Virus record (IMG/VR): IMGVR_UViG_3300036761_001135 | Location: 104,689 to 168,688 of that record | Strand: one strand, 5' to 3' | Length of the DNA: 64,000 bases | Source of the DNA: a virus | Shown: one piece after another, positions 2,500 through 56,586 of the stretch | How the letters are laid out: every line of letters starts with the position of its first letter | Position numbering within the stretch: the stretch's first letter is position 1 | Program-made: the position numbers and the translations under genes | The notes under the pieces: model-generated | Told to the model about the DNA's origin: nothing | The model's database searches: none | The model's input: the letters and a program-made list of their open reading frames with translations, nothing else

Positions 2500-4056
2500 A
2501 TGGCGCAGGCGAGTAATACAGGACATTTTCAGTGGCCGATTCCGAATTGGAACGCCGACTGGCAGAAGTGGCAGCAGATGTTCGGGACGTTTGCCCACGG
2601 GGTGGACGCCTGCGTCTTTGGCATCCTAGAGCACATCACAGTGCTCGCCAAGACGCTCCCGAGCGCGGTGATCATCGACCCGGGGACGCATGTGTTTTCG
2701 CAGAACGCGGCGGCGGTCTTCGTCTCGCGGACGCTTCAGACACAGATCTACGTGGGGCCGACCCCGTTGACGTTGATTCCGGGGGCGCTGGTGTGCGCGT
2801 CTCTTCAGCCGGGAGCGGTTGGTCCACAGGTTGTGGATTGGGAGTTGCGGGATGGAAGCACTCCGGTCGATCCGGCATTGGTCGTGTTTGGAGTGGTGGC
2901 GGACGACTATGCGATCCGCTGGTACAACGGGGCGCGGTTGCCGCTGGGCACGGCTATGGTGTTGTTCGAATTTCCAGGCGGGAGTGGGCCGGGCGGTGGA
3001 TTAGATCCAGCGCCGTTCCTGACGCTTTCGGCGAACACGGTGCTGACCGAATCTCAAAACGGGCAGTATTTCGAGACGAATAATGTTGGGGGCACGGTAA
3101 CAGTGACGCTGCCGACCGACCCGACGGACGGCATGCAGTACACGGTGGTTGCTGGGAAGGGCACTACGACCGTCGTGGAGGCAGGTGGGACGAACGGCAT
3201 ACTCTGGCCGCAGTCCACGGTGAGCGTGCCCCTGGTGCCTGATTTGCGGGCGGCTCCGACGACGTTGGCACCTGTTCGATTGACGATCACGGCGAAGGAT
3301 CTCACGGCGTTTGGGATCTCGGAGATCGCGTGGATAGCGACGTCGGCGACGGGGTTGTGGACAGACGCGGTGAGTGGCAAGGCGTTTGACTTCAATTTCC
3401 CGGTGACGGTGAGTAGCGGGTTGCTCATCGACGATCCTTTGGTTGGGACCAAGTCGGTGGCGGGTGCGCCTGCGTTGGTAAGTGACGCAGCGGCGGTGAC
3501 ACCGTTCCGGCTGAAGTGCGAGTCGGACACCCATTTGCGCAGCGTGGACATGACGGTGACGCGAACCCAGGTTCGTGCCTTACTGGAGAGCTACCACGGG
3601 TCGGCCTCGGTGGTCCCGGTTGCGTTTACGGTGAACACCACGGTGTTTGCAGCGGTGGCAGACGACGGGTGGGTGGCCACGTTCAAGGTCGGAGCGAACA
3701 CGTCGGGTGCAGCGGTTCCAATCGTTGTGCAGAACGAGGGCGTGGTGACCGAGATTTCCATTGGAGACGCGCCATTTGTCCACAGCATTACCTGCTCGCA
3801 GCTTGGGGCGAGTATCATCCTGCGGCACACGGGAAATCCGCTGGGGTCGCGTGGCCGGTTCCAAGTCATAGCGGGGTCTGGCACATGGACGGACAATCTT
3901 GGTGGCGTGCATGTTTTCGATAGTTTGGGCGCGCTGGACGGGGCTGCGAATCCCAATGGGATCGTGACCGGGGTTCTTGGGCAGTCGTACTATCAGACAG
4001 GGGTGGGCGTATTTTGGATCAATATAGACGGCAGCACGGAATGGATCGTACAGTAG
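2500..4056 (+). CDS. Tail-fibre-like structural protein
   Basis: 518 aa, AGGAG RBS; VTVTLP..P.DG.QY motif; C-terminal NPNG.VTG.LG motif shared with the next ORF. Confidence 0.7.
   Translation: MAQASNTGHFQWPIPNWNADWQKWQQMFGTFAHGVDACVFGILEHITVLAKTLPSAVIIDPGTHVFSQNAAAVFVSRTLQTQIYVGPTPLTLIPGALVCASLQPGAVGPQVVDWELRDGSTPVDPALVVFGVVADDYAIRWYNGARLPLGTAMVLFEFPGGSGPGGGLDPAPFLTLSANTVLTESQNGQYFETNNVGGTVTVTLPTDPTDGMQYTVVAGKGTTTVVEAGGTNGILWPQSTVSVPLVPDLRAAPTTLAPVRLTITAKDLTAFGISEIAWIATSATGLWTDAVSGKAFDFNFPVTVSSGLLIDDPLVGTKSVAGAPALVSDAAAVTPFRLKCESDTHLRSVDMTVTRTQVRALLESYHGSASVVPVAFTVNTTVFAAVADDGWVATFKVGANTSGAAVPIVVQNEGVVTEISIGDAPFVHSITCSQLGASIILRHTGNPLGSRGRFQVIAGSGTWTDNLGGVHVFDSLGALDGAANPNGIVTGVLGQSYYQTGVGVFWINIDGSTEWIVQ
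3562..3575. repeat. Dispersed palindrome copy 1 (intragenic)
   Basis: CGAACCCAGGTTCG. Confidence 0.85.
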
Positions 4057-4109
4057 CGTAAAGTTACACGGTTCTCGGCAATATCGCCGGGTCACAAAGG
4101 AGTTCACCA

Positions 4110-5261
4110 ATGGCAGGGTTCACCAGTCCGTATCGCTACCACAACTTCATCGGCAATCACGCAAACAAAGCAGCGGCCAAGACGTTCTTCGAGACCACCC
4201 TGGGCTGGGGCACGATGGGCGCGAGCGTCGGCCTTGGCGTCTCCTACTGGGACGACACAGCCGTGTTGATCAAGGTCTGGAACGGCTCGGATTTTGTAGC
4301 CCTAACTGCCGCGACTCCGGCACTGAGCGCAGTGCTCGCGGTTGGCGCGGACGCGAACTCTGTCGTCATCACGAACCTCGGAGCGCCGAACAATGCAGGC
4401 GATGCGGCGACCAAGGGATACGTGGACAGCGTGGCCACGGGCCTCATGTGGAAGCCCCCGGTCCTCGTGATCAACATGGTGAGCAACGCTGACCAAAGCG
4501 GAGCCGACCCGACCGGCATGGTCAAGGGCGACTGCTACGTCGTGAACAACTGGCTCACCACGGATTGGGACGATGGCGACATCGTGGAGTACAGCGGCAC
4601 GGCGTGGGTACGTATCCAAGCCGCGACGACTGGCGAGCCTGCCGATGGCACACGCGTTATCGTGAAGGCGACTGGCGCGGCGGGATCGTTCGTGGGCCAG
4701 GCCAACAAGGTCTCCACCTACAACGCCACGACAGACGCCTGGGCACATGCGGCTCCGGCAGACGGTTGGGCGGCGCTGGTCATCGGTAACGGCGGCATCT
4801 GGAGCGACACCGGCTGGACCTACACCGGATCGGCGTGGGTACAGTTCACTGGCGCTGGCCAGATCAACGCTGGTTCCGGTCTCACCAAGGACGGAAACAC
4901 TCTGAACGTCGGTAAGGGCGACGGCATCGCGGTCGGTAACGACACCGTGGGCATCGACCTGACCTCCAGCAACCCCGGCTTAGAGCTGACTGGCACCAGC
5001 CCGAACAAGACCCTGCAAGTCATGGCGGACGGAGCCCACGGTATCGTGCGCGGCGCGTCCGGCGTCGAGATCGAGCTGGCGGCCACGGCGGCCAAGGGCG
5101 GTCTGGTCGTCGACTCCGATGGCGTGCGCTCGATGCAGTTCAACGCTGGCAACCCCAACAGCGTCGTGACCGGCGTGCTGGGCGAGTTCTGCCTGGATAC
5201 CACGAGCAAGGTGCTCTACGTCTGCACGACGGCGGGCAGCGCCAACTGGAACGTGGTCTGA
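4110..5261 (+). CDS. Tail/head fibre-like protein
   Basis: DAATKGYVD motif, WVQFTGAGQI.AG.GLTK.GNTLNV fibre motif, AGGAG RBS. Confidence 0.75.
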   Translation: MAGFTSPYRYHNFIGNHANKAAAKTFFETTLGWGTMGASVGLGVSYWDDTAVLIKVWNGSDFVALTAATPALSAVLAVGADANSVVITNLGAPNNAGDAATKGYVDSVATGLMWKPPVLVINMVSNADQSGADPTGMVKGDCYVVNNWLTTDWDDGDIVEYSGTAWVRIQAATTGEPADGTRVIVKATGAAGSFVGQANKVSTYNATTDAWAHAAPADGWAALVIGNGGIWSDTGWTYTGSAWVQFTGAGQINAGSGLTKDGNTLNVGKGDGIAVGNDTVGIDLTSSNPGLELTGTSPNKTLQVMADGAHGIVRGASGVEIELAATAAKGGLVVDSDGVRSMQFNAGNPNSVVTGVLGEFCLDTTSKVLYVCTTAGSANWNVV

Positions 5262-5275
5262 CGATCTCGGGATCT

Positions 5276-5338
5276 GTGGGGTCGGGTAGACGGTCTCTTG
5301 TGCTTTTCTCCTCTGGCTACCCGGCCCCGCCTTTTTTT
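5276..5338 (+). terminator. Putative intrinsic terminator
   Basis: GTGGGGTCGGGTAG / CTACCCGGCCCCGC stem (long loop) followed by T7, just after the stop at 5261. Confidence 0.55.
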
Positions 5339-5361
5339 GAGTTGCGCGATGAGGTGCCTGC

Positions 5362-5560
5362 TTGACATCCTCCGCCCGTTAAAGAAGGCGGATTCCTGAA
5401 GGAAGAATGCTAGGCATTGTTTACAACAGGTTGGTTCACAGTTCGACGACCGCTGCGTGTCTTGGCGAGTGCCTTGCTACGTCTTCTGCGGTCTCCCTGT
5501 GCGTTTATTCTGTCAGTCTGTCCGACCGCCAGTATATTCAGCGCGGCGTTGTGGTCCCGG
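5362..5560 (-). ncRNA. Putative omega/reRNA scaffold of TnpB
   Basis: TnpB reRNAs derive from the right end and overlap the 3' end of tnpB; right-end hairpin and TCAA terminus are present. 5' boundary is a guess. Confidence 0.55.
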
Positions 5561-6606
5561 TCGTGGACGACGCCGCATATCGGGCACGCCCATTCACGAA
5601 TCGACAACGGCAGCGCACTAACAACGTGGCCACAATCGTGACACCGTTTGCTGGATGGGAAGAAGCGGTCAATCTTGACCATCTCCTTGCCGTACCAGGC
5701 GCACTTGTACTCAAGCAGGCCCACGAATTTGCTCATCGAGGCATCGCTGAGCGCCTGGGCCAGGCAGTGGTTGCGGACCATGCCACGCACGTTCAGGTCT
5801 TCGACGCAAATCACGTCGAAGCGGCGCACAAGGTTGGTAGTGACCTTCTGCATGTGGTCGATGCGGGTATCCGCAATGCGGGAGTGGATGCGGGCAACTT
5901 TGAGACGTTGACGCTCGCGGCGGTGACTGCCTTTCTGTTTGCGGGCCAGGGATTTTTGCGCCTTGGCCAGTTTGCGGAGCTTTTGTTTGAGCAGGCGAGG
6001 GTTAACGATGTGCTCGCCGTTCGAGAGCGTGGCGAGTCGGTTGATGCCCATGTCTATCCCGATGACATCGCCAGTTTTGGGCAGCGGTTGGATGGTCTCG
6101 TCGAGCACCAGGGTCACGAAGTACCGGCCATCCATGTGCTTGGCTATCGTCACAGTGGTGGGGGTACTGGTGAATGGGCGCGACCAGCGAACATCCAAGC
6201 GGCCAAGCTTAGCGATGGTCAGGTGGAGATGGGTAGCGTTCCAGTCAAAGGCACTAGCGGTGTATTCCGCAGATTGATGACCACGTTTTTTCTTAAAGGA
6301 CGGGTACGACGTGCGCTTCTCGAAGAAGTTCACGAAAGCGGTTTGCAGGTGTCGCAATGTTTGCTGCGTGGGCACGGACGAGATTTCGTAGAGCCACGCG
6401 GTCTCGGGTTGCTTCTTGAGTTTGGTCAGTGCATTCGACGATGCCTCATATGTCATCCGAGAACCGTTGTGGTAGGCGTCGGTGCGGGCGCGAAGAGCCC
6501 AGTTATAGACGAAGCGACAAGCGCCAAAGGTGCGTGCGAGGATGCGTTGTTGGTCCTCCGTTGGGTACACGCGAAATTGATAACGCATCTTCACAGAAAA
6601 CGGCAT
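5410..6606 (-). CDS. tnpB: RNA-guided endonuclease TnpB
   Basis: HTH RYQFRVYPT..FGACRFVYN; RuvC GIDMG / VEDL / DRDHNAALNI; Zn ribbon CHDCG..CPICG. Start is uncertain (6591, 6606 or 6630). Confidence 0.96.
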   Translation of the reverse strand: MPFSVKMRYQFRVYPTEDQQRILARTFGACRFVYNWALRARTDAYHNGSRMTYEASSNALTKLKKQPETAWLYEISSVPTQQTLRHLQTAFVNFFEKRTSYPSFKKKRGHQSAEYTASAFDWNATHLHLTIAKLGRLDVRWSRPFTSTPTTVTIAKHMDGRYFVTLVLDETIQPLPKTGDVIGIDMGINRLATLSNGEHIVNPRLLKQKLRKLAKAQKSLARKQKGSHRRERQRLKVARIHSRIADTRIDHMQKVTTNLVRRFDVICVEDLNVRGMVRNHCLAQALSDASMSKFVGLLEYKCAWYGKEMVKIDRFFPSSKRCHDCGHVVSALPLSIREWACPICGVVHDRDHNAALNILAVGQTDRINAQGDRRRRSKALAKTRSGRRTVNQPVVNNA

Positions 6607-6692
6607 AATCCTGTAAATGCAGTCTGTCAACGAGGAAAGGAATGGCGCTTTTGCTGTCGTCTGAACGTGACGGTCTGAGCGCCTAAAATAAG

Positions 6693-9464
6693 ATGAGTTT
6701 GACGATGCCTTACGGGCAGAACCACTACATGGGCGAGTGCGCCACCGAGTCGGCGGCGCTGGTGTGGATTCGTGACAATAAGTGGGACAGCGCGGGGAAC
6801 GGCACTGGCAATCCGAAGGCTGGCATGGCGTTCTTCGATACGGGGGCGACCAAGCTCAAGGTGCATGACGGCAGCGCGTGGGTTGGACTAGGTAGCGCGA
6901 GTGCGGCAGGATCGACGGGCTACGTCCAGTTCAATACTGGCGGGGTATTTGATGCCGAGGCCGCTCTCTTTTGGGATAAGTCGAATGACCGACTGGGCGT
7001 AGGGTGTTCGAATCCATCATATGGGATTGAGGCTTCCAAGGATGGAGCACAGTCCGTCTGTATTTCAAGTTTTGGCACTGGCGTTTCGCCAAGCGTCATC
7101 ATGCAACGCGGTCGCGGGTCGCGGGCGAGTTATTCAGCCATCAGCAGTGGAGACCTATTGGGGTCGGTTCGATTTGCAGGTTTTTACGACACTTCATCGG
7201 TCAGTTATGCCTCTGGGCAGATCCAGGTGGTGGCGACGGAGAATTGGAGCGGTAGTGCGTTTGGTGCGGAGATGCAGTTCCATACAGCTCCAAACGGTTC
7301 TGCTGGCATTACGCAGCGCATGGTGATCACACAGGACGGCAGGTTTGGCTTTGGAGTAGCAGCGCCAGCGACGTTTATGCACTTACAGGCCGAGGCGAGC
7401 ACGACGATCACGGCAGCGACCTATAGCAGCAGTGCGAGTGCGGCGCTGAACTTATTTCGAGCGCGGAACACGGTGGCTGTTCCACAGAATGTTCAGTTGG
7501 GCGACTATCTGGGGACTATCGCTTTTCGCGGGTACGTTGGAGGTGGGGCTACAGCGGGTCAGATTCAAGCAGTAGCGACGGAGAACTGGTCGGCCAGCTC
7601 GGGGACTGCGTTGACGTTTTGGACCTACCCGAACACCACGGGAGCGCTGACCGAGCGCGTGCGGATCGATCAGTCTGGGTACGTTGGCGTTGGAACGACG
7701 GCACCGACTTGGCAGGTCCATGCGTCTAGGGCAGGGGATGCGACGATAGGATCGACAGCGTATGGCACGGGCTATCGAGGCTATCTCCTCATGGCACATG
7801 CCAATGGGACGGAGGGAACGCCGACTACGCTTGGAAGTTATGACTATATCGGCCAGATCAGCTTTCTAGGGCACACGGGGACAGCGTTTCGTGGGGGAAC
7901 GGCGATTCGTTCTATGACGTCGGAGGCGTGGACTGAGTCAAACCGTGGTTGCCAGATTGAGATTTTTACAACGGCGAGTACAACGAGCACGGTTCGTCAG
8001 ATTGCGACGTTTGGGCAAGACGGATCTCTGACCATGGGAGTGGTTGGTACGTTGGGTGGCAAGATCGTGATGTCCGGTTTGACATCGGGAACATGTACGA
8101 TTCAGGTGGCGGCGGCGGCGGGCACGGTCACGTTTCAGTTGCCGTCGACCAATGGCACGAACGGGTATTTTCTCAGGACGGACGGGGCAGGCGTGACGAG
8201 TTGGGCTGTCGCAACAGCGATTCCAGCGGGCAGCACAACACAAGTCCAATACAATAATGCTGGAGCATTTGGCGCAGATAGTGGTTTCACTTTTGATAGC
8301 ACGAATAAAATAATCGATCTTGCTGGAAGTGCGGTGAATTCAGGGTTACGTGTCACGGTGGCAGGCACTTCAGCTTTCCCATTTTTAACGTTCAGACGCT
8401 ACAGGAATACCATTGCATCGCCACAGGCGGTTCAAAGTGGAGATGTGATTGGACAGATTGCTTTTGTTGGCTATGGAACCACAGGAAATTATACGGGTTC
8501 AAATTTTGTTGGGTATGCAGATGCTACATGGACGGATTCGTCATCTCCGGCTTACATACTTTTCAGGACTACTCCTGCTGCATCTACGATTCCTGTCGAG
8601 CGACTGCGCATCACGAGTACAGGACAGATCGCGACGGGAGCAGAGTCCGCACCAGATGTCGATCCAGGTGGACTCTGCATCCACCATGGAGCCAACGATG
8701 GGTATCCGTTGACGTTCAAGAACAGCGACGTCAACCATCCGTTCACGGCGATCTGCGAAGCGGACACGTATCTCCGTACCAACAAGACGGACTCCGCCGC
8801 AGGCGGCGCGAATTTCATCGGATTTGGCACAGGATCGGTCGGCATTGGCCTCTTGCTGGGAGGGGCCAACTCGAACCCCGTGAGTGGCACGTCCGATGGA
8901 TGCGTGGCCATCGTGGCATACAAGAGCAACGGGACGACGGGGTTTGCGGCGTTGGCCGCGACAGAGAATTTGGCGGCCTTCCGCAGCTATCAGACGACGC
9001 AGGTGATCATCAAGGGGTCGGGCGACATTCACACCGTGGCCGGGTTGAAGATCGGGGCCTATGGCCAGACGGCGGCGGCGGGGGCCATCGAATGGAACGG
9101 CACCAACTTCCGAGGGTACACGGGGAGCGTGTGGAAGAACTTGGACGCGAGTGGCGGGACCACGGTGGACGCGGGCACGGCCCAGGGCCAGGTCTTGTTC
9201 TGGAACAACGCGGGCAGCGCGTGGACCTACGCGGAGACTTCGGAGTGGATCTGGGATGACACCAACAAGCGGGTGGGCATCAATGAGGCAGCGCCCAGCT
9301 CGCGCCTGGACGTGGGCGGGGACGTGGAGATCGCCAGCAACGGCTGGCACTACTACGGCGACCCGAGCACGGACGGGTCATGGCGCACGGGGCGGGTGAG
9401 TGCGGATCTGGTGGTGCAGAAGCGGGAGAGCGGCACCTGGAATACGAAGCACACGTTCTCGTGA
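6693..9464 (+). CDS. Long tail fibre protein with four internal repeat modules
   Basis: 923 aa, Gly/Ser/Thr-rich; repeated R.RG..ASP.AV.SGD.LG.I.F.G..ER.RI..G module; N-terminus resembles that of 4110-5261. Confidence 0.8.
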   Translation: MSLTMPYGQNHYMGECATESAALVWIRDNKWDSAGNGTGNPKAGMAFFDTGATKLKVHDGSAWVGLGSASAAGSTGYVQFNTGGVFDAEAALFWDKSNDRLGVGCSNPSYGIEASKDGAQSVCISSFGTGVSPSVIMQRGRGSRASYSAISSGDLLGSVRFAGFYDTSSVSYASGQIQVVATENWSGSAFGAEMQFHTAPNGSAGITQRMVITQDGRFGFGVAAPATFMHLQAEASTTITAATYSSSASAALNLFRARNTVAVPQNVQLGDYLGTIAFRGYVGGGATAGQIQAVATENWSASSGTALTFWTYPNTTGALTERVRIDQSGYVGVGTTAPTWQVHASRAGDATIGSTAYGTGYRGYLLMAHANGTEGTPTTLGSYDYIGQISFLGHTGTAFRGGTAIRSMTSEAWTESNRGCQIEIFTTASTTSTVRQIATFGQDGSLTMGVVGTLGGKIVMSGLTSGTCTIQVAAAAGTVTFQLPSTNGTNGYFLRTDGAGVTSWAVATAIPAGSTTQVQYNNAGAFGADSGFTFDSTNKIIDLAGSAVNSGLRVTVAGTSAFPFLTFRRYRNTIASPQAVQSGDVIGQIAFVGYGTTGNYTGSNFVGYADATWTDSSSPAYILFRTTPAASTIPVERLRITSTGQIATGAESAPDVDPGGLCIHHGANDGYPLTFKNSDVNHPFTAICEADTYLRTNKTDSAAGGANFIGFGTGSVGIGLLLGGANSNPVSGTSDGCVAIVAYKSNGTTGFAALAATENLAAFRSYQTTQVIIKGSGDIHTVAGLKIGAYGQTAAAGAIEWNGTNFRGYTGSVWKNLDASGGTTVDAGTAQGQVLFWNNAGSAWTYAETSEWIWDDTNKRVGINEAAPSSRLDVGGDVEIASNGWHYYGDPSTDGSWRTGRVSADLVVQKRESGTWNTKHTFS

Positions 9465-9469
9465 GGACG

Positions 9470-9483
9470 CGAACCCAGGTTCG
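9470..9483. repeat. Dispersed palindrome copy 2
   Basis: CGAACCCAGGTTCG between the two fibre genes. Confidence 0.9.
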
Positions 9484-9500
9484 CCTGGTGAGGAGTACCG

Positions 9501-17940: not shown

Positions 17941-17954
17941 CGAACCCGGGTTCG
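17941..17954. repeat. Dispersed palindrome copy 3
   Basis: CGAACCCGGGTTCG, intergenic. Confidence 0.9.
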
Positions 17955-21235: not shown

Positions 21236-21480
21236 TGGGCATCAAGGCACAGCCGACGCAGTCTACCCACGCGAACTCGGGTTCGTCTATGCCTCCAATA
21301 TCGCCGGACGCGCATGCGCTCACGATGGAGGACGCGCTGGTCATGGTGATCTTCCCGCAGGCGACGTGGGATGCTGTTTTGCAGTTGGCGAAGGAGTTGA
21401 ACGTCGCGCCGGCCGAGGCGTTAGGTGCGGCGATCAAGCTGCTTCGGGCGCGTGTAGACGAGGAGACGAGTCACGGATGA
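21235..21480 (+). CDS. Small hypothetical protein
   Basis: TGATG coupling; the true start may be downstream. Confidence 0.55.
   Translation: MGIKAQPTQSTHANSGSSMPPISPDAHALTMEDALVMVIFPQATWDAVLQLAKELNVAPAEALGAAIKLLRARVDEETSHG
21272..21285. repeat. Dispersed palindrome copy 4
   Basis: CGAACTCGGGTTCG. Confidence 0.8.
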
Positions 21481-29200: not shown

Positions 29201-29214
29201 CGAACCTGGGTTCG
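29201..29214. repeat. Dispersed palindrome copy 5
   Basis: CGAACCTGGGTTCG just after a stop codon. Confidence 0.9.
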
Positions 29215-43311: not shown

Positions 43312-43325
43312 CGAACCTGGGTTCG
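43312..43325. repeat. Dispersed palindrome copy 9
   Basis: CGAACCTGGGTTCG in a divergent intergenic region. Confidence 0.9.
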
Positions 43326-47526: not shown

Positions 47527-47528
47527 CC

Positions 47529-48123: not shown

Positions 48124-48137
48124 CGAACCCGGGTTCG
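48124..48137. repeat. Dispersed palindrome copy 10
   Basis: CGAACCCGGGTTCG with extended arms (CGACG / TGTCG). Confidence 0.9.
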
Positions 48138-48553: not shown

Positions 48554-48584
48554 GTTTGTCAACAGTTGAGTTTTGTTGACAAAC
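48554..48584. promoter_or_regulatory. Back-to-back TTGACAAAC elements (divergent -35 boxes)
   Basis: GTTTGTCAACA-9-TGTTGACAAAC inverted repeat; a third copy at 48620. Confidence 0.55.
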
Positions 48585-48669
48585 GACATGCGTTTTTCGG
48601 TTTGGCGCGTTTTGATCGGTTGACAAACGTGCATGAGCAGATCAACGTGTGGCTGGTTTTTGTGGCAGG

Positions 48670-48683
48670 CGAACCTGGGTTCG
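48670..48683. repeat. Dispersed palindrome copy 11
   Basis: CGAACCTGGGTTCG upstream of the BRO gene. Confidence 0.9.
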
Positions 48684-48759
48684 TGTCTGTGGGTATTTGG
48701 AGTTGATGCGGTTCGTGGTGAGCCGCGTGGATTGATGGCTGAACAGATGGAGGTGATCG

Positions 48760-49635: not shown

Positions 49636-49797
49636 TCAGCAGCGGATTTTCGTATGTGCGTTTGATACTGGTGAATCTCCATGTGGCGGATTGTGATTCG
49701 TGAGGATTTCTTGCTGATTTTAACGAATTAGCAACGGATTTCTATATGTGATTTTGCTGTTGTGGTAGGGTTCTAAATCGGTCGGTTACCCAACGGT

Positions 49798-49833
49798 GCC
49801 TCGGCGCAATGGTGCGCCGGGGCTTTTTATTTT
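49798..49833 (+). terminator. Intrinsic terminator
   Basis: GCCTCGGCGCA-ATGG-TGCGCCGGGGC followed by TTTTTATTTT. Confidence 0.75.
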
Positions 49834-49914
49834 ACGGGGTAGTTTCGTGGCATTAGACGAAGGGGAATTGATCGGTTGAACAACCTTGTTGGCAGGTGAT
49901 ATAGAAGCGTGGGC

Positions 49915-49953
49915 AAAAAAAAAGGCCGTCCAGTGAGGCAAACCGGACGGCCT
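49915..49953 (-). terminator. Minus-strand intrinsic terminator
   Basis: AGGCCGTCC / GGACGGCCT stem with a 5' A-run on the plus strand. Confidence 0.65.
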
Positions 49954-49975
49954 AAAACGAAAGGACGTGACGTGC

Positions 49976-51427
49976 ATGGATAGCAATGGAACCAGTTTGA
50001 GGCAAGAGGGAACGAACAAGGGCAGTGCGAAACTGGCGGAGCGGATCGTCGATACGTTGAATCTGGGACAGTACGGCGTCACGTACCGTGTGGAGGACGG
50101 CCAGCGGTGGTGGAATTTACGGGAGATGTTGCGACACCTCGGATACACGCTCGATTACAATCCTCCGCATGTGGAGGTGGTCCACAAGCGGTTCTTTACC
50201 ATCGAGACAAGCAGGGGCCAGCAGTCCCGTGTTTACCTGTCTGATTCCGGCATGATCCGGTTCCTGGTGCGGTCAGACAAGAAGAGTGCCCAGTCATTCC
50301 GCTACCAGATCGCGGAAGCCCAGGTGGTCGTCCCGCAGGTACCAGTCGAGCCAGCTCCGCAGGCACAGCCGAGATCCGTCCCACAGGAGCCCGCTGCACC
50401 AGCAGCGCCACGGGTAGCCGAATCTGAGAGGGTACTCGATCCCGTCGATTTCCATGGGCAGAGACTGACCCTCGTGGATCGGAGGGGCGAACCCTACGTG
50501 GCGATGCGGCCGATTGTCGAGGGTATGGGGTTGGACTGGAAGGGCCAGCATGCGAAATTGACCAGTGAAACGAGTCGTTTCTGCGTGGAGATGATCACCA
50601 TGCAGCTTTTTGGGGATTCGCAAGTGCGCGAATTTACTTGTATCCCATTGCAAAAGCTGGCTGGGTGGTTGATGACCTTGCAACCGTCGCGGATGGATAT
50701 GTTCATGGCCGACAAGGTGCGCATGTACCAGAATGAGTGCGACACCGCCCTTTGGAACTACTGGACGAGGGGGGCGGCTGTGAATCCGCGTGCGCAGGTC
50801 TCGGATGACCCGACGAAGATGGGGTTGCCGGACTTTCGCGATCCGCGTGCGGCTGCCGTGGGGTGGATCGAGCAATACGACCGGGCGGTGGCGGCAGAGC
50901 TGGAGGCGCGAGCGGCCAAGGAGCGAGCGCACCTCCTCGCGGCCAAGATGGCGGAGGACGCCCCATTGGTGGACTTCGCGGAGCGCGTGGAAGCCTCCCC
51001 GACGACGCATCTGGTGGGGGCCGTGGCCAAGATGATCCAGCAGGGCACGGGGCTGTCGATGGGGCAGAACCGGCTGTTCGAGTGGTTGCGCGAGAACCGC
51101 TACCTGCATCAGACGGGGAGCCGCACGAATCAGCCGACCCAGCGCAGCCTGGACCAGGGCTGGTTCATGTTGCAGGTGAGAAACGTGGACATCGGGCACG
51201 AGACCCGCGTGAAGTACACGACTCGCGTCACGGGCAAGGGGCTCATGCACTTCTACGAGCAGTTCTACCGGACGGCCATCGAGCTGGGGCTCAAGCCGCG
51301 AGTGCGACCGGAGCTGGTTACGTCGGCGGAGGTGTTGCGCCAACTGCCACTTTGGGCCGACGAGGACAGCGACCGAGTGGACGAGGATCTGATCAAGGAG
51401 GCCAAGCGGCTGGATCCGAAGCCCTAG
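49976..51427 (+). CDS. Multidomain antirepressor: BRO-like + P22_AR_N + ANT/KilAC
   Basis: VDFHGQ.L..EPYVAMRPIVEGMGLDW..YQNECD.ALW.YW; P.VDFA..MGQNRLFEWLR..PTQ..VTGKG; GAAAGGA RBS favours ATG 49976. Confidence 0.9.
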   Translation: MDSNGTSLRQEGTNKGSAKLAERIVDTLNLGQYGVTYRVEDGQRWWNLREMLRHLGYTLDYNPPHVEVVHKRFFTIETSRGQQSRVYLSDSGMIRFLVRSDKKSAQSFRYQIAEAQVVVPQVPVEPAPQAQPRSVPQEPAAPAAPRVAESERVLDPVDFHGQRLTLVDRRGEPYVAMRPIVEGMGLDWKGQHAKLTSETSRFCVEMITMQLFGDSQVREFTCIPLQKLAGWLMTLQPSRMDMFMADKVRMYQNECDTALWNYWTRGAAVNPRAQVSDDPTKMGLPDFRDPRAAAVGWIEQYDRAVAAELEARAAKERAHLLAAKMAEDAPLVDFAERVEASPTTHLVGAVAKMIQQGTGLSMGQNRLFEWLRENRYLHQTGSRTNQPTQRSLDQGWFMLQVRNVDIGHETRVKYTTRVTGKGLMHFYEQFYRTAIELGLKPRVRPELVTSAEVLRQLPLWADEDSDRVDEDLIKEAKRLDPKP

Positions 51428-51464
51428 CAGACGTCTGGAAGTCTGGAAGTCTGTGGTCGGAACG

Positions 51465-51478
51465 CGAACCCGGGTTCG
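51465..51478. repeat. Dispersed palindrome copy 12
   Basis: CGAACCCGGGTTCG next to a -35 box. Confidence 0.9.
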
Positions 51479-51482
51479 TTTG

Positions 51483-51511
51483 TTGACAAACGCGGATCGG
51501 GTGGCTAGATT
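51483..51511 (+). promoter_or_regulatory. sigma70-type promoter
   Basis: TTGACA-17-TAGATT, 4 bp after a palindrome copy. Confidence 0.8.
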
Positions 51512-51547
51512 GAGAGGCAAGATGGCGGGCGCGATGCTCGCCGGGAG

Positions 51548-51838
51548 GTGTCCATGGAAATCAAGAAGCTCAACCGCGTTGATGACGAACCTTTGCGCCA
51601 AGCGATCCTAGACGAGATCATGCAGGCGATCACGGTCCGCGTGGTCGCTGGGGTGGTCCATCTTGAGTCCCTGCGTGGTCTGGCCACGGTGGCGACTGCT
51701 GGCAGCATCGTGACCATAGAGTACCGGGGCAAGGCGTCGGGGGTGGCGTACCAGTTTTGGATGGACAAGGAACATGCTTCCGTTCGGGCGCTCGGGGCGC
51801 AGTTGCGTCGCCTCCGGGACGCGCAGCGGGCGGCGTAG
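51548..51838 (+). CDS. Hypothetical protein
   Basis: GGAGG RBS; start at 51548 or 51554. Confidence 0.7.
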   Translation: MSMEIKKLNRVDDEPLRQAILDEIMQAITVRVVAGVVHLESLRGLATVATAGSIVTIEYRGKASGVAYQFWMDKEHASVRALGAQLRRLRDAQRAA

Positions 51839-51848
51839 AAAGGCAACT

Positions 51849-52136
51849 ATGATGAACCCAAACAATTTGAAGGGACCGCTTGTTCACCTCAACGGAACGA
51901 GCGCGGGTGAGCTGGATGAGCAGATGCGTGCGTGCCGTGACACGCTGCGGGCTGCTTTGTTCGCATTGCACCTCGCCGCGCCCAACGCGAGGGACTACTA
52001 TCCTCTTGGCGACAATGCGTTCGCGGAGGCGCAGGCCCGTCATGCGAGCCGAATCATGGCGATGAGGGCCGTTTACAATGAATGCTGTGCGATTTTTATA
52101 GAGATCGTCGAACAGAAAGAATCTAGGGCGCGGTGA
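51849..52136 (+). CDS. Small phage protein (HLNGTS..PNARDYY motif)
   Basis: AAAGG RBS. Confidence 0.75.
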   Translation: MMNPNNLKGPLVHLNGTSAGELDEQMRACRDTLRAALFALHLAAPNARDYYPLGDNAFAEAQARHASRIMAMRAVYNECCAIFIEIVEQKESRAR

Positions 52137-52184
52137 AGGATGGCGTTACACTGTACTGGGGAGGGGGTGTAGGAAGGATAGGAG

Positions 52185-52379
52185 ATGGAGACGGGGAAGG
52201 GTGGCCGCGAGCTAGAAACCTGTGAGATGAATTTACTTTGGTTTCGCCTACGGGGTCGGAAGGTGCTCAACCATTACGACGTGCAGATGTGCGTGCGCCA
52301 GGCAGAGCGCGCACGGATGGACCAGAACAGCTTGGCTTTTTGGGATGAGATCAGCGGCATAGAATTGACAGACGGTTGA
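52185..52379 (+). CDS. Hypothetical protein
   Basis: AAGGA RBS. Confidence 0.5.
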   Translation: METGKGGRELETCEMNLLWFRLRGRKVLNHYDVQMCVRQAERARMDQNSLAFWDEISGIELTDG

Positions 52380-52405
52380 CAAACGCTTGAATGGCTGGGA
52401 ATACT
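52376..52405 (+). promoter_or_regulatory. sigma70-type promoter
   Basis: TTGACA-18-AATACT. Confidence 0.55.
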
Positions 52406-52421
52406 CTCCGCAGGAGGGACT

Positions 52422-53039
52422 TTGGAAAATTCAGATGTTTTTTGTACCCCGGGCGTAGGCGTTTTCACTGTCAATGCGAATGACGTAGTAGACGAGGCCC
52501 GCCTGCGGCAGGAATGGCAAACTCCGCGCGTGTTCTTGGCGGCTCTAGCGCGTGAGTTCTGCATCGACATTGATGTCGCGTCGAGTGACGACAACGCCGT
52601 GGTTCCTCGCCATATCACCTGGGAACAAGATGGGCTGGTACAGTCGTGGTTTGCACAGGCACCAGAGGACGTTCGTGGTCGCCCTCGCGTGGCATGGTGC
52701 AACCCTGGCTTCAAGGATCTTGGCGCGTGGATGTCGAAGGCCGTGCGTGAGGTGGACGCTCATCCGGGGTGCGTAGCGCTTGTCATGGGCACGGCAGCAC
52801 CATCTACGGCCTGGTGGGCGCGAGCGATTGCGGCGGGTGCAGAGATCCGTCTGCTTGCTCCGCGTGTGCAGTTCATGGCCCCTCCGGGTATCAAGCAGTC
52901 GAGCAATGCGCGAGAGAACGCGCTGGTCATCATTCGGAGCCAAGTGGGCGGCAACTCGATCCTTCGAGAGCGTCGTTCTCATATTTGGACATGGCGGTGG
53001 GATGCAGAGGCAGTTCTCACCAATGGAGAAGAGTCATGA
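52422..53039 (+). CDS. Phage DNA N6-adenine methyltransferase (Dam-like)
   Basis: EWQTP..F.ID.DVA....NA..DGL..SW..WCNPGF..W..KA. Confidence 0.85.
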   Translation: MENSDVFCTPGVGVFTVNANDVVDEARLRQEWQTPRVFLAALAREFCIDIDVASSDDNAVVPRHITWEQDGLVQSWFAQAPEDVRGRPRVAWCNPGFKDLGAWMSKAVREVDAHPGCVALVMGTAAPSTAWWARAIAAGAEIRLLAPRVQFMAPPGIKQSSNARENALVIIRSQVGGNSILRERRSHIWTWRWDAEAVLTNGEES

Positions 53040-53395
53040 AAGAGTTGATCATCAGCGGTGGAAGTGACGACCTGATCGAAATCGGTGGGTGCATCTCGGA
53101 CGAATTCGCAGCCAACGTCGGATCGCAGGAGGAGCTTGGCGAGGTGATCGACATGTACGTTGGATGCAAGCAGGTGGCCTGCGTCCACTGCTTCTACGAC
53201 GGCTGCTGGTTTTTCGGGTTCGTCGGGACGGACGACACCGAGGACGGTGACCGCGTGACCATGCCGGAGGGTTGGAAAGTTGAGGTGCGTGCGTGTGGCG
53301 ACCGAGAGGGTGGCATCGCTCCGTACTCCATGAGCGTTCACATCTTCATGCCAGACGACTGCGATGTCAGCGTGGTGCAGCGCCAGGCAGATTAG
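53036..53395 (+). CDS. Acidic phage protein (G.SDDLIE motif)
   Basis: ATGA coupling. Confidence 0.75.
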   Translation: MKELIISGGSDDLIEIGGCISDEFAANVGSQEELGEVIDMYVGCKQVACVHCFYDGCWFFGFVGTDDTEDGDRVTMPEGWKVEVRACGDREGGIAPYSMSVHIFMPDDCDVSVVQRQAD

Positions 53396-53396
53396 G

Positions 53397-53660
53397 ATGC
53401 CCGAGCACCATCGTATGGCTCGCCTGTCGGCAGTGAAGCGCAACGAGCGCGACCGACTGGTTCAGCAGATCTTGGATGCGTCGAAGGCGCTGTACGAATA
53501 CAAGCTGCTTCGCAATTGCGATCTTGTCGTGGACCAAGACGACCTCGGACCAACGGAAGCGCGCACTGGAAACCCGACTGACAATATGTTCTATTCGAAT
53601 AATCGGAGCTGCGACGTGCGCGTTAGTGTCACATTGGTGGTGCGCGCCATAGATCGCTGA
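53397..53660 (+). CDS. Hypothetical protein
   Basis: Fills the gap in the operon. Confidence 0.55.
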   Translation: MPEHHRMARLSAVKRNERDRLVQQILDASKALYEYKLLRNCDLVVDQDDLGPTEARTGNPTDNMFYSNNRSCDVRVSVTLVVRAIDR

Positions 53661-53665
53661 ACACC

Positions 53666-54040
53666 ATGGACGAAGACAACATCATCACGTTGAGAGACAT
53701 CAAGGACCAAATCCGGGCGCGAGAAGAGGAGCTGGAGAAACTTCATGGGGAACTAGATGCGCAGCATGTTGCAGGAAGAATCCAGGCTCGTGAGGAGGCG
53801 CTCGAACGGCTGTGCATAGCGCTCCAATATTTGCAAAACTCGATGGCCGAGGTGAAGGCCACGCGGGCTCGATTGGATATGGAGCGGGGGATTATGATGC
53901 GCGAGTTGCGGGAGTCCCGTGCGCGAGCTGAAGAGCTGGACGCAGAGCTGCGGAGCGTGCGGTTGGCCCACCGAGAAGTTGAACGACAGATGGAATCCGA
54001 TGACGACGACACTGACCCAACGCCTTCGGGCGCTCGCTGA
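53666..54040 (+). CDS. Coiled-coil protein
   Basis: 124 aa, heptad-rich. Confidence 0.7.
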   Translation: MDEDNIITLRDIKDQIRAREEELEKLHGELDAQHVAGRIQAREEALERLCIALQYLQNSMAEVKATRARLDMERGIMMRELRESRARAEELDAELRSVRLAHREVERQMESDDDDTDPTPSGAR

Positions 54041-54452
54041 ACACCCCTCCACCCCGCCCGAGGAGCGCGACAATGCCATGCGGCGATTGGCAGAGCTGGG
54101 GGCCAAGTCGCCACCACCGTCGCCGGCTGCACCAACAGTGCGCGAGAAGCTGGGACGTGTCCGGGCGAGGCCCGTGGTCCGAGTGCTTCCAGTGCGCTGG
54201 CCCTTCGGCTGGGAAGGTCCGCGACTTCCTGTGGAGCGCGAGATCGGAAGCGATGGGCGCGGCGGGATCGCCGTGGGCTGGAAGTGCCCGGCTTGCGGTG
54301 GACAAGTCGAGCGGCGTCTGTCGCGTGCGGATCTCACTCGCATGTCGCCACCTGGACGAAAGAGCAGTGTTGAGTCGCAGATCACTCACATGGTAGATGG
54401 GACGATGAACCAGCTCTGCATGACGTGCTGGGATCGTTGGGAAGCGCTCTGA
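54000..54452 (+). CDS. DUF2786-like N-terminus plus Zn finger
   Basis: LRALAEHPSTPPEERDNA..L; CPAC..CMTC. Confidence 0.6.
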   Translation: MTTTLTQRLRALAEHPSTPPEERDNAMRRLAELGAKSPPPSPAAPTVREKLGRVRARPVVRVLPVRWPFGWEGPRLPVEREIGSDGRGGIAVGWKCPACGGQVERRLSRADLTRMSPPGRKSSVESQITHMVDGTMNQLCMTCWDRWEAL

Positions 54453-54454
54453 CA

Positions 54455-54468
54455 CGAACCTGGGTTCG
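54455..54468. repeat. Dispersed palindrome copy 13
   Basis: CGAACCTGGGTTCG 15 bp upstream of a -35 box. Confidence 0.9.
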
Positions 54469-54483
54469 CGTGTCGATTCACGG

Positions 54484-54511
54484 TTGACAAACGCGACAGG
54501 CTGGTTAAATT
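54484..54511 (+). promoter_or_regulatory. sigma70-type promoter
   Basis: TTGACA-16-TAAATT. Confidence 0.75.
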
Positions 54512-54565
54512 CATAGGCGAGGGCGAGATGCCTGGCAACGGATGCCGGGTGCCCAAGGAGGAACC

Positions 54566-54988
54566 ATGTACCTTCATTCCTGCAAGCCGAACTCGAAGCG
54601 CGATGCCAGCAAGGACCGCAACGGCCAGAGCAATATCGTGGCACTCTTCCGCCGCACGCGGAAGGGCCAGAAGCAGATCGCTTCCGGCCAAGAGCTTGGC
54701 GTGGAAGGCGTGAACGGATCGGACTACTACGAGATCCGCATCGGAGTAGACGGAGTGCTCTACTGCTCGTGCCCGGATTACAAGTTTCGGGGTCACCGCT
54801 GGAACCGAGAGCACGCGAGCCACTACGCGTGCAAGCACATCGTCGTGGCGCTCGAACACTTCGCCACGATGGCCCAGCGCGGCGTGGCCATGGACAGCGA
54901 GATGATCGTCTATCGTCCCGAAGTGCTTGTCGCCGAGGCCGCTCGCCTCTCCGCCGCCGCCGCCGCCGCTTCAGAGAGGACCGCATGA
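54566..54988 (+). CDS. SWIM zinc-finger protein
   Basis: YEI..YCSCPDY.FR..CKHI; AAGGAGG RBS. Confidence 0.85.
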   Translation: MYLHSCKPNSKRDASKDRNGQSNIVALFRRTRKGQKQIASGQELGVEGVNGSDYYEIRIGVDGVLYCSCPDYKFRGHRWNREHASHYACKHIVVALEHFATMAQRGVAMDSEMIVYRPEVLVAEAARLSAAAAAASERTA

Positions 54989-55140
54989 AAAAGCGCGGAG
55001 ATGCGGAGCGGGCCGCCAAACCCGCGCCTGTGACACGGCTGCCACGTCGCACGAGCCCTCGCCAACTGGCATCGCAGGCAGCTCGCCAGACGGCTGCCTT
55101 GGAGGCTGCCAGGGCGCTGCTTGAGGAGGTCAACCGATGA
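54985..55140 (+). CDS. Small basic protein
   Basis: ATGA coupling on both sides. Confidence 0.55.
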   Translation: MKKRGDAERAAKPAPVTRLPRRTSPRQLASQAARQTAALEAARALLEEVNR

Positions 55141-55559
55141 CCGGGCCAGAGCGCTGCCCCATTTGCGGGGATGCCCTTGAGGCGGGTAGGACCGTGGGGA
55201 TCGGGGGCTGGAAGGTCTGTACCCATCATTGGGTACGGATCATGCCCAGCAAGTACGCCTCGCGCTGCCATGAGTGCCTCGGTCCAATCCTGCCCGGCGA
55301 GGAGATCGTGTTGTCGAAGGACAATAAGGACTCGCGGTGGGTGGTGTTCCACCGGAAGGACCGCTGCGATGGTGCTATGCAGGTGGCTCCGAACGCGCCG
55401 AGTGGACCGTGGGCTGTCCTGTACCTCGTGCCAGGGGCTCCGCCCGAGGTCATCAAGGCTGTGTACCGGGCGCTCTCCCAGAAGTACCACCCTGATCGCG
55501 GCGGGGACGTGGTGAAGATGCAGGAACTCAACGCGGCGATGGCCGCGCTGATCAAGTAG
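55137..55559 (+). CDS. Zn-finger + J-domain protein
   Basis: PWAVL..A..IKAVYRAL..KYHPDRGG..MQELNAA. Confidence 0.9.
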   Translation: MTGPERCPICGDALEAGRTVGIGGWKVCTHHWVRIMPSKYASRCHECLGPILPGEEIVLSKDNKDSRWVVFHRKDRCDGAMQVAPNAPSGPWAVLYLVPGAPPEVIKAVYRALSQKYHPDRGGDVVKMQELNAAMAALIK

Positions 55560-55568
55560 GAGGCGAGG

Positions 55569-55814
55569 ATGAAGTGGACAACAGCGATGCCAAAAGAGGA
55601 GGGATGGTACTACTTGCGAAGCACGGAAAGCAAGGCTGTACCTGCCTTCCCGGCGCTGTGCAAGCGTGAAAAAGATGGGAGTTTTGCGTTGTATGTGGCT
55701 GGGGCGAAGGAGCCTTTTCGAACGGTCTTCTGTCTGCCCTATACGACGATGATCCCTGCCTTCCTTGTAGGAGAACGGATGGAAGACCATTTGAAAAGCG
55801 TCGTGGAGGTGTGA
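55569..55814 (+). CDS. Hypothetical protein
   Basis: MKWT..P.EEGWY motif; AGGAGG RBS. Confidence 0.7.
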   Translation: MKWTTAMPKEEGWYYLRSTESKAVPAFPALCKREKDGSFALYVAGAKEPFRTVFCLPYTTMIPAFLVGERMEDHLKSVVEV

Positions 55815-55816
55815 CA

Positions 55817-55954
55817 ATGGCGACGATGGAACATTTTTGCTCGAAGTGCGGCTGGTCAACCTGCAACAACAGCAGCGGGCCGTTCGTGTGCCCCAAGTGC
55901 GGGGAGGAGCTGGGTCACGCCAGCGATGATGATTATGAAGATGACGACGAATGA
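55817..55954 (+). CDS. Mini Zn-ribbon protein with acidic tail
   Basis: 45 aa, CSKCG..CPKCG..DDDYEDDDE; GGAGG RBS. Confidence 0.65.
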   Translation: MATMEHFCSKCGWSTCNNSSGPFVCPKCGEELGHASDDDYEDDDE

Positions 55955-55962
55955 GATGACAC

Positions 55963-56169
55963 ATGACGGATAGATACGCTATTGGTCATATGGTGAGACG
56001 GTGCGGTGACGGTGTCTATCGAGAGCTGGACCTGGACGACCGGAGCCTGGCCCCCATGTGTCGGCTGCGCGTGTGCGAGCAATGCGGGACTGAGTTTCGG
56101 GCGCGCACTCGCAATGGTCAGCGTTGCCCCCTGTGTGAGGATGTTGCGTCCATTTCCAGAGCGGGATAG
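55963..56169 (+). CDS. Small Zn-ribbon protein
   Basis: CEQCG.EF..RCPLC. Confidence 0.6.
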   Translation: MTDRYAIGHMVRRCGDGVYRELDLDDRSLAPMCRLRVCEQCGTEFRARTRNGQRCPLCEDVASISRAG

Positions 56170-56178
56170 CATTAGGAT

Positions 56179-56547
56179 ATGCCGAAGAAGCTTCCACCCA
56201 ACCCAGACGAACTTCCAGCCCTGCAACATGTGAAAAGCTCGAACGTCTTTGCTATTGGGTACAGCATTCGTGATCGCAAGCTGTTCGTGCAATTCCGTGC
56301 GGCCGGATCGGAGCGACCAGTACCAGGCGCAATCTACCGTTACGATGACGTCCCGATCACGGTGTGGAGGCGGTTCAAGGATGCCAAAAGCAAGGGGCAC
56401 TTCCTGGCCGCGCACATCAAGGGCACCTACTGGTACATGCGCTGGACGGGACGCACCTGGCGTCCTGAGACCGCCCTGCGGTTCGACTCGAAGAAGAAAA
56501 AGAGGCTGAAGCAATTAGCGAAAAAGCTGCGCGACGCGACAAGTTGA
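56179..56547 (+). CDS. KTSC domain protein
   Basis: VKSSNV.AIGY..L.VQF..Y.Y.DVP..F..A.SKG.F..HIK. Confidence 0.9.
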   Translation: MPKKLPPNPDELPALQHVKSSNVFAIGYSIRDRKLFVQFRAAGSERPVPGAIYRYDDVPITVWRRFKDAKSKGHFLAAHIKGTYWYMRWTGRTWRPETALRFDSKKKKRLKQLAKKLRDATS

Positions 56548-56571
56548 CAAACGGCTCCTAATGGGTAGGAT
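56544..56571 (+). promoter_or_regulatory. sigma70-type promoter
   Basis: TTGACA-16-TAGGAT, immediately followed by a palindrome copy. Confidence 0.75.
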
Positions 56572-56572
56572 G

Positions 56573-56586
56573 CGAACCTGAGTTCG
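56573..56586. repeat. Dispersed palindrome copy 14
   Basis: CGAACCTGAGTTCG over a predicted transcription start. Confidence 0.85.

Follow-up and report, generated by a model that had tools for sequence, protein, structure and literature searches.

Palindromic sites with lineage-specific spellings at conserved, evenly spaced addresses in the genomes of uncultured T4-type phages

The 64,000-nucleotide (nt) stretch of phage DNA analysed here (the window) comprises bases 104689-168688 of the IMG/VR record IMGVR_UViG_3300036761_001135 (168,688 bp; called G000) and contains 14 copies of the palindrome CGAAC-YYRR-GTTCG. These belong to a genome-wide family that is spaced more evenly than randomly placed sites, is retained while the surrounding sequence diverges, and occupies addresses at which related phages carry palindromes of different spelling. 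The sites probably dock a sequence-specific protein, a symmetric dimer or higher oligomer, which would most likely be encoded by the phage, co-evolve with its sites and act over a short range.

All 14 copies listed in the initial annotation of the window were recovered at their coordinates (Table 1), and the claim that their number lies far above chance was borne out by 100 dinucleotide shuffles, which gave a mean of 0.01 copies and a maximum of 1. The looser pattern CGAAC-N4-GTTCG retrieved the identical 14 copies and nothing extra (0.08 expected). Extended to the whole 168.7-kb record, the count rose to 33 copies (about 0 expected), with 0 copies of a reversed control pattern; the LexA-type consensus CGAAC-N4-GTTCG was fitted by 14/14 copies in the window and 33/33 in the genome. 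In an alignment of the 33 copies the arms read CGAACC and GGTTCG, with all 12 arm bases perfect in 30, and the centre dinucleotide was TG in 15 copies, CA in 12, CG in 6 and never TA (Fisher 5e-5 versus independence). Position -1 was G in 30/33 copies, opposite C or T at +1; positions -2 and +2 were C or G on each side; and position -3 was A in 30/33, its mirror +3 being T in 27/33. The ACG extension described initially exists, but it is symmetric and not one-sided. As the symmetry extends beyond 14 bp, the functional unit is a dyad of about 20 bp, A-S-G-CGAACC-YR-GGTTCG-Y-S-T. Copies with one mismatch numbered four in the genome, three of them already among the 33, and copies with two mismatches numbered five, which does not exceed the 5-9 of shuffled sequence. 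Membership of the family is all-or-none, with almost no degenerate copies.

G000 has a G+C content of 58.8% and is 91% complete by CheckV. Both ends of this nominally linear record are contiguous in a 93%-identical relative (G005), and G000 therefore represents a whole, circularly permuted genome. It derives from an uncultured T4-type phage with a Gp23-family major capsid protein, a contractile sheath, gp19-like tube proteins and baseplate genes, together with a replication module of DnaB/DnaC type and a UvsX-like recombinase. Genes were called with a self-trained caller, which placed 234 of 239 on one strand. Related loci (n = 80) were fetched via alignment of the capsid protein, and afterwards the whole records; a near-identical phage was not found among GenBank phage records. 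The genome bins to which related contigs had been assigned conflict (Dehalococcoidales, Phycisphaerae, an archaeon), and host inference from bins was rejected, since the assignments contradict one another.

About 25 of the 33 copies (about 75%) are intergenic, whereas intergenic DNA makes up only about 10% of the genome. For the window, the initial annotation had counted 12 intergenic copies; their mostly intergenic position was confirmed, but the count by the self-trained caller is 13/14, only the copy at 3562 lying clearly within a gene. Copies squeezed between a stop codon and the next start, as had been described, were found at 9470, 17941, 33856, 34676, 38363 and 56573, where they lie 2-26 nt past the stop and 12-19 nt ahead of the start. 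Over the genome, 10 intergenic copies begin 1-5 nt from a stop codon and 14 finish 1-25 nt, mostly 12-19 nt, ahead of the next start codon; from these short distances it follows that such a gap consists of stop, palindrome, Shine-Dalgarno sequence and start. The density is about one copy per 5 kb, the largest gap between copies is 11.2 kb, and 15 copies fall in the structural region at 50-134 kb. The coefficient of variation of the spacing is 0.56, compared to about 1.0 when sites are placed at random, be it anywhere in the genome or only in the available gaps (P = 1.5e-4 each). Six whole genomes, with 22-41 sites each, gave a consistent picture: 70-85% of the sites were intergenic versus 6-12% of the DNA, the coefficient of variation ranged from 0.56 to 0.84, and in five of the six few random placements were as even (P 0-0.03).

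Five related IMG/VR records share the spelling of G000, with a copy every 5-7 kb. Further lineages have spellings of their own: CGAACT-NN-AGTTCG in G006-G010 (17-30 copies each), CG[A/C]ACA-CG-TGT[T/G]CG in G011 (41-44 copies), CGCAYG-CG-CRTGCG in G012 and G013, TGCAC-N4-GTGCA in G015 (7 copies), and CCGCAAAC/GTTTGCGG, GCGAAATC/GATTTCGC (left/right arm) and GTGCAAT-NN-ATTGCAC in more distant loci. Over all spellings the half-site is [C/T]G[A/C/T]A[A/C/T]N, in which G2 and A4 never vary. G014, a complete 186-kb relative with a 40% identical capsid protein, has a similar promoter word and no palindrome family. Judged by the major capsid protein, relatives at 44-99% identity carry sites, and the clade at about 40% does not. 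In G011 (IMGVR_UViG_3300029288_000082; loci L191-L199), CGAACA and CGCACA half-sites occur in all four combinations at equal frequency, and this genome appears to represent an intermediate with relaxed specificity between the CGAAC and the CGCA spelling.

In close relatives the flanks of the sites are 69-86% identical, yet 51/54 orthologous sites retain all 12 arm bases, and the centre alone changes, among TG, CA and CG. Judging from these alignments, the retention of the arms amid diverged flanks is purifying selection on the sites. Positional conservation in related phages, to which the initial annotation had tied its reading, was found, with addresses shared across lineages: a site upstream of a gene in G000 tends to accompany a site upstream of the orthologue (Fisher p 2e-5 to 2e-4 for G006, G007, G008 and G011), the association being not significant for G012. 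A further case is the copy at genome position 58691, which lies inside the head-module gene g093, directly behind the portal gene, in a stretch where adjacent genes touch or overlap. Of 47 g093 orthologues (22-77% identical), 41 have at the same codons a palindrome that is perfect over arms of 6 bp or more, each in the spelling of its own lineage, and the peptide encoded at the site varies accordingly (RTQVR, RTRVR, RMRMR, RTRMR, RKRLR and CNQLH; CTRVH in G015). On this comparative evidence, the palindrome in g093 is kept at the expense of the protein sequence, and selection on the DNA itself is strong.

The sole other strongly recurring intergenic word in the genome is GTTGACAAAC(G), located in the window at 48576, 48620, 51483, 52376, 54484, 56544, 57301 and 59538, with about 13 more copies genome-wide. 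It is an early-promoter word, followed by a -10 element like TAAATT; about 21 of its copies in the genome are intergenic, and about seven have a palindrome within 70 bp. Its core TTGACAA occurs in 16-45 coding-strand copies per genome and is kept in relatives of 35% to 70% G+C; the palindrome-free G014 has the variant CTTGACAGACGC. Conversely, about 7/33 sites lie within 70 bp of any early-type promoter, 3/14 in the window (51465, 54455 and 56573). Two of the promoter associations proposed initially were confirmed: the copy at 51465 precedes a -35 element (TTGACA-17-TAGATT) by 4 bp, and that at 56573 lies over a start site, beginning directly behind the -10 element of TTGACA-16-TAGGAT. The third, an extended -10 element downstream of 43312, was unconvincing, being a weak TGTGATAAA about 55 nt downstream. 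The copy at 54455, 15 bp upstream of a TTGACA promoter, is an additional case. Most copies have no promoter nearby, and only that at 56573 overlaps a start site. The absence of U-tracts was likewise upheld, with no T-run after any copy, and a terminator scan of the window returned no palindrome copy among the terminator-like matches. Two strong hairpin-plus-U terminators facing each other lie at 49798-49823 (+) and 49953-49923 (-), in the spacer ahead of an Ant/Bro-like gene; with the textbook terminator at 49798-49823 in the window, the phage uses ordinary terminators elsewhere than at the sites. T4-type late promoters were considered and discarded, as the genome lacks TATAAATA and the sites have no late-promoter word beside them, and so was a replication origin, as the site flanks are no more AT-rich than control junctions.

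Positions right behind stop codons and right ahead of ribosome-binding sites, in a genome with nearly all genes on one strand, would also suit a palindrome that acts in the transcript as a hairpin, which might direct processing, stabilise the RNA, terminate transcription without a U-tract or be recognised by an RNA-binding protein (e.g. a KH-domain protein). The 24-nt windows around the sites fold at -9.1 kcal/mol versus -3.8 kcal/mol for random sequence, G:T outnumbers A:C at +-1 on the coding strand in G000, there is some co-variation in G012, and a KH-domain gene is conserved among the site-bearing genomes. The RNA-processing hairpin, named as an alternative in the initial annotation, is contradicted by the independent variation of half-sites in G011: arm position 3 and its mirror combine as A/T in 11 sites, C/G in 11, C/T in 12 and A/G in 10 (22 paired and 22 mismatched of 44), and, since these counts match independent half-sites, the compensatory pairing predicted for a hairpin fails. 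Half of the 41-44 sites of G011 thus carry a mid-stem A.G or C.U mismatch, and these fold at -5.7 kcal/mol, no better than random 24-mers of that genome (-5.1 kcal/mol). In G000, positions +-2 avoid pairing (complementary in 7/33 sites versus 13.9 expected). Complementarity of positions 6 and 9 persists from lineage to lineage (C:G, T:A, A:T), though in a hairpin the two could close a loop of only 2 nt; the bias at +-1 is reversed in G006-G008; and the asymmetric centre, which would make the loop differ by orientation, faces both ways about equally on the coding strand (15 TG, 12 CA; similar in G006-G008). No Rfam family matches the sites, no U-tract follows them, and an ordinary terminator is found nearby. 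A function as hairpin is hence highly unlikely. Since each half-site of G011 changes without regard to the other, and half of the sites in that genome are no more stable when folded than random RNA, selection on balance acts on a double-stranded sequence read symmetrically, the signature of a dimeric protein. Such a protein could be the LexA of the host, with the sites as SOS boxes that link phage genes to DNA damage or titrate LexA. The LexA box of Gram-positive bacteria (SOS or Cheo box) is CGAAC-N4-GTTCG, itself a dyad for a dimer; its 14-bp letters are identical to those of the phage sites, and every copy in G000 and in the CGAACT lineages fits them exactly. Two copies in the window are placed like operators at sigma-70-type promoters, and a related contig shares a bin with a Dehalococcoidales genome, binning being weak evidence. 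The LexA-box reading made initially nevertheless did not hold beyond the letters. Most sites are off promoters, many of them between late structural genes or inside genes; the non-consensus positions 6, 9 and +-3 are equally strict, and there is no gradient of weaker boxes. Relatives, some as close as 76% in capsid identity, use CGCACA, CGCATG, CCGCAAAC or GTGCAAT arms at the same addresses, to which a LexA specific for CGAAC should not bind, and G011 uses CGAACA and CGCACA half-sites interchangeably, whereas LexA specificity is stable at the phylum level. A simple sponge would need neither fixed addresses nor even spacing, and a search of all six frames of the phage with Pfam gave no match to the LexA DNA-binding domain. 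We regard SOS boxes as very unlikely, and the case cautions that a perfect letter match to a famous motif is no evidence of membership.

An enzyme acting on DNA, for instance a site-specific nickase or other nuclease, a topoisomerase, or a recombinase cutting around the central 2 bp, could open regularly spaced points for loading, release supercoils or promote recombination. It would account for the all-or-none conservation, as in a restriction site or phage promoter, for the 6-2-6 layout with its special centre (TG, CA or CG in G000, mostly CC or GG in G006) and for the even spacing. A Cas4-like gene (g068) moreover follows an ASCH-fold gene (g067) downstream of a conserved site in every site-bearing genome, and one cassette lies between two copies where a relative has a single copy. 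Yet the Cas4 family is not known to be sequence-specific, and double-strand cuts at 33 places in its own genome would be costly to the phage. Across lineages, genes retain their order and their one-directional orientation, and no inversions between opposed copies were seen. A recombination hot spot was rejected specifically, as mosaic breakpoints versus the 93%-identical relative were not enriched at the sites (6/80 within 30 bp, with 7.4 expected from gene junctions). Overall, an enzyme as the reader of the sites is improbable. The same breakpoint counts speak against a REP-like (repetitive extragenic palindromic) or PeSL-like (early promoter with stem-loop) element without function, which would have spread by mobility or recombination and been homogenised within each genome. 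The identity of copies within a genome, their presence in either orientation and mostly in intergenic gaps, and the cassette flanked by two copies would fit such an element, as would the pairing of some copies with an early promoter, which resembles the terminator-promoter cassettes of T4-type phages (PMC4122927). However, addresses persist under different spellings, one of them in a coding sequence whose protein is 22-77% identical between orthologues; the copies are mostly found in conserved structural modules, not in variable regions; and no target-site duplications were seen in the flanks, nor a Y1 (REP-associated) transposase, PF01797 having no match in the phage. A mobile, functionless element is thus extremely unlikely.

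The evidence fits the proposal of the initial annotation that a dimeric protein binds a dyad site in both early and late regions. We infer from it that a protein binds the sites, that this protein is of phage origin, and what its action may be. Each subunit would read one half-site [C/T]G[A/C/T]A[A/C/T]N, in G000 ASG-CGAACC, and co-evolution of the phage-encoded protein with its sites would give each lineage a private spelling. The sites keep to fixed addresses, roughly every 5 kb, and occupy intergenic gaps or, where there is none, the inside of a gene. As the addresses are conserved, the action should be local, and as the spacing is even and a site is forced into coding sequence where there is no gap, its range should be limited. 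At unit boundaries of a one-directional genome, and sometimes directly upstream of or on early promoters, the bound protein might punctuate or insulate transcription units and switch nearby promoters, which is the action we favour; alternatively, it might serve as anchor or loader for a factor travelling a few kilobases, or for something that organises the phage chromosome. Several points weigh against a docking protein of this kind. No binding protein for the sites was found. The only clear dimeric DNA binder that tracks the sites, a ribbon-helix-helix (RHH) protein (see below), does not co-vary with their spelling, and the presence/absence profile of candidate genes relies on one site-free genome (G014). 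All-or-none conservation is unusual for the sites of an ordinary regulator and also suits an enzyme recognition site. Half-site variants in G012 co-occur beyond independence (T/A 18, C/G 8, mixed 7), as base pairing would also produce, and the +-1 positions in G000 are G:U-like on the coding strand (G:C 17, G:T 13, A:C 2). Finally, the gene calls rest on a home-made, self-trained caller.

A more far-reaching version, which we put forward only tentatively, is a clade-wide address code, in which an unrecognised phage protein on evenly spaced private palindromes would organise or gate the whole one-directional chromosome, with addresses older than their spelling. The sites could then insulate transcription units from one another or block passage between them, or be places where a factor of limited range is loaded, and specificity would drift via promiscuous intermediates such as G011, which reads A and C at arm position 3. 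If so, the array would be a natural record of a protein and about 30 sites changing specificity together, and might bar co-infecting relatives from each other's machinery. The dozens of natural specificity variants should allow the reader to be found by co-variation or binding assays. Should a protein organise the transcription or the chromosome of a 170-kb phage in this manner, it would constitute a new layer of phage genome control; otherwise, the sites would offer a clean model of co-evolution between one factor and many sites.

The closest published analogue is the 17-bp dyad TGTTCGG-N3-CCGAACA of Cluster O mycobacteriophages (Corndog and relatives), for which the authors predict a dimeric binding protein and leave the function of the repeat unexplained (Cresawn et al., 2015; PMC4351075). 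That repeat also has about 30 or more copies, invariant arms with very few one-mismatch copies, and a variable, asymmetric centre with no orientation bias relative to transcription; it is genome-wide and mostly between genes, with about one third of copies inside genes, and one phage has a gene between two copies where relatives without the gene have a single copy, in phages that are not obviously temperate (PMC4351075). G000 shares this description, with at least 30 copies, invariant arms, an orientation-neutral centre and mostly intergenic placement. The two differ in that Cluster O comprises siphoviruses of Mycobacterium as opposed to an uncultured T4-type myovirus, and in its 7-3-7 layout with the arms in opposite order; even spacing, addresses kept under changed spelling and retention in coding sequence at the cost of the peptide are not described for Cluster O. 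Dispersed invariant palindromes of lytic phages have thus been reported since 2015 and are still unexplained. New here are the phage group, the significantly even spacing, the conserved addresses under at least eight spellings and the case in coding sequence.

Dispersed palindromes are also known from the ParB family, namely the KorB operators of plasmid RK2 (12 copies of a 13-bp palindrome in 60 kb), Noc-binding sites and parS. These are likewise perfect palindromes of 13-16 bp over a whole replicon, at about one per 5 kb in RK2, some at promoters and some distant, and their readers are dimers that can act at a distance and whose specificity diversifies between family members. Unlike those systems, the phage has no need of partition, and the ParB N-terminal domain was not detected in it: PF02195 had no match at E<=1 in the six frames of the phage, although a very divergent member could escape this search. 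Neither the LexA-like nor the ParB-like gene envisaged initially was thus detected by Pfam. The stoperators of Cluster A mycobacteriophages, to which the sites had also been compared, share many copies throughout early and late genes, often at gene junctions, but are asymmetric, follow the direction of transcription and are the targets of a temperate phage's prophage repressor (PMC4351075). The analogy fails, as the sites here are symmetric and without orientation bias, and no repressor or integrase gene was seen; a Pfam scan of 120 non-structural proteins returned no helix-turn-helix (HTH) repressor family. PeSLs are composite terminator-promoter units that are restricted to hyperplastic regions of T4-type phages and work by homologous recombination (Arbiol et al., 2010, PMC2839356; Comeau et al., 2014, PMC4122927). 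They come from the same phage superfamily, and the copies at 51465 and 54455, as well as those at 1501 and 5685 outside the window, resemble them in lying just upstream of the early promoter word, as does the one cassette indel bounded by two copies; most copies here, in contrast, are promoter-free and in core structural modules, with no enrichment of mosaic breakpoints.

For the reader protein, 33 genes were found to be common to most or all site-bearing genomes (at least 4/5 relatives compared) with no match in G014. Pfam and PHROGs scans of the 120 non-structural proteins returned as possible DNA binders RHH, Bro-N and SWIM proteins, a Top1-type zinc ribbon, and a weak MerR-like HTH, which is also present in the site-free G014. 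The Arc-like RHH gene (64 amino acids, aa; G000 92264-92458, L010:16264-16458) lies outside the window and heads the baseplate-hub operon. It is translationally coupled to the hub gene, syntenic in all six site-bearing genomes and missing there in G014. Its promoter has an inverted repeat, GAGTA-N5-TACTC, around the -10 element, which is unchanged in G006-G008 and suggests that the RHH protein regulates its own promoter. It was rejected as reader on account of this different, lineage-invariant repeat and of its N-terminal strand, R-x-N-x-E, which is the same under different palindromes. The g067-g068 operon (G000 33569-34915, L007:14569-15915; outside the window) is present in every palindrome-bearing genome examined, with a conserved palindrome directly upstream, and not in G014. 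For g067, an ASCH/PUA-like fold was predicted (predicted local distance difference test score, pLDDT, 87.6; best match YqfB, E 7e-6); it is not an obvious reader of DNA palindromes. By its D..ExK, QxxxY and four-cysteine motifs in an alignment, g068 looks like a Cas4-type PD-(D/E)XK nuclease, a family not known to be sequence-specific. The product of g002, a small conserved gene that, like g067, follows closely on a conserved site, is helical with a conserved C-terminal DLGF and had no informative fold match or Atlas neighbour; profile searches of g002, g067 and g234 versus solved structures yielded nothing significant. The KH-domain protein g003 (KhpA-like; G000 1912-2244, L006:1912-2244; outside the window) is encoded after a conserved palindrome-plus-promoter junction; it is conserved in G006, G007, G008, G011 and G012, with a tblastn match in G015 and none in G014 or the partial G009 contig. 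KH domains bind single-stranded nucleic acid. The window encodes two small SWIM zinc-finger proteins (g221, g234) at 54566-54988 and 60015-60398; the latter has a C4 zinc ribbon in addition and is conserved in each of the six site-bearing genomes. No candidate gene can be nominated as reader with confidence.

Table 1. Palindrome copies and one adjoining promoter, in window coordinates.
Feature	Position	Strand	Context
Copy, CGAACCCAGGTTCG	3562..3575	.	Inside 518-aa gene (2500-4056); retained in G005 and G004
Copy	9470..9483	.	5 nt past stop of 923-aa tail-fibre-like gene, 17 nt ahead of start of 1574-aa gene; retained in G005 and G004
Copy, centre CG	17941..17954	.	3 nt past stop, 14 nt ahead of 806-aa gene
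Variant copy, CGAACTCGGGTTCG	21272..21285	.	36 nt past stop; canonical CGAACCCAGGTTCG at the same place in G005
Copy	29201..29214	.	2 nt past stop of last gene of structural block
Copy	33856..33869	.	Left edge of one-gene cassette 33885-34649
Copy	34676..34689	.	Right edge of cassette 33885-34649, 19 nt ahead of next start
Copy	38363..38376	.	17 nt past stop, 13 nt ahead of start
Copy	43312..43325	.	Within 293-bp spacer ending tagged-cargo gene array; centre CG in G005
Copy, centre CG	48124..48137	.	Within 767-bp spacer
Copy	48670..48683	.	Same 767-bp spacer as 48124; 50 bp past early-type promoter word TTGACAAAC at 48620
Copy	51465..51478	.	Ends 4 bp ahead of early-promoter -35
Early-type promoter, TTGACA-17-TAGATT	51483..51511	+	Adjoins copy 51465; context, not repeat
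Copy	54455..54468	.	2 nt past stop; 15 bp ahead of -35 of early promoter 54484-54511
Variant copy, CGAACCTGAGTTCG	56573..56586	.	Begins 1 nt after -10 of promoter 56544-56571; operator-like; 12 nt ahead of 72-aa gene

The orthologue of the gene behind 17941 has an upstream site in G008 and G011 as well, the centre being TG in G005, and the junction orthologous to that of 56573 bears a site in G008 and G011, with the canonical spelling in G005. The cassette at 33885-34649 consists of one gene of 254 aa, which belongs to the tagged cargo array and has copies on both sides. G005, 93% identical, is without the cassette and has a single copy at the junction; from this comparison, it looks like a gain or loss by recombination between the 20-bp repeats. 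Host-like helper genes cluster at 55137-57295 of the window, with a DnaJ-domain gene at 55137-55559, a KTSC-domain gene at 56179-56547 and a GroES/Cpn10 homologue at 57026-57295.

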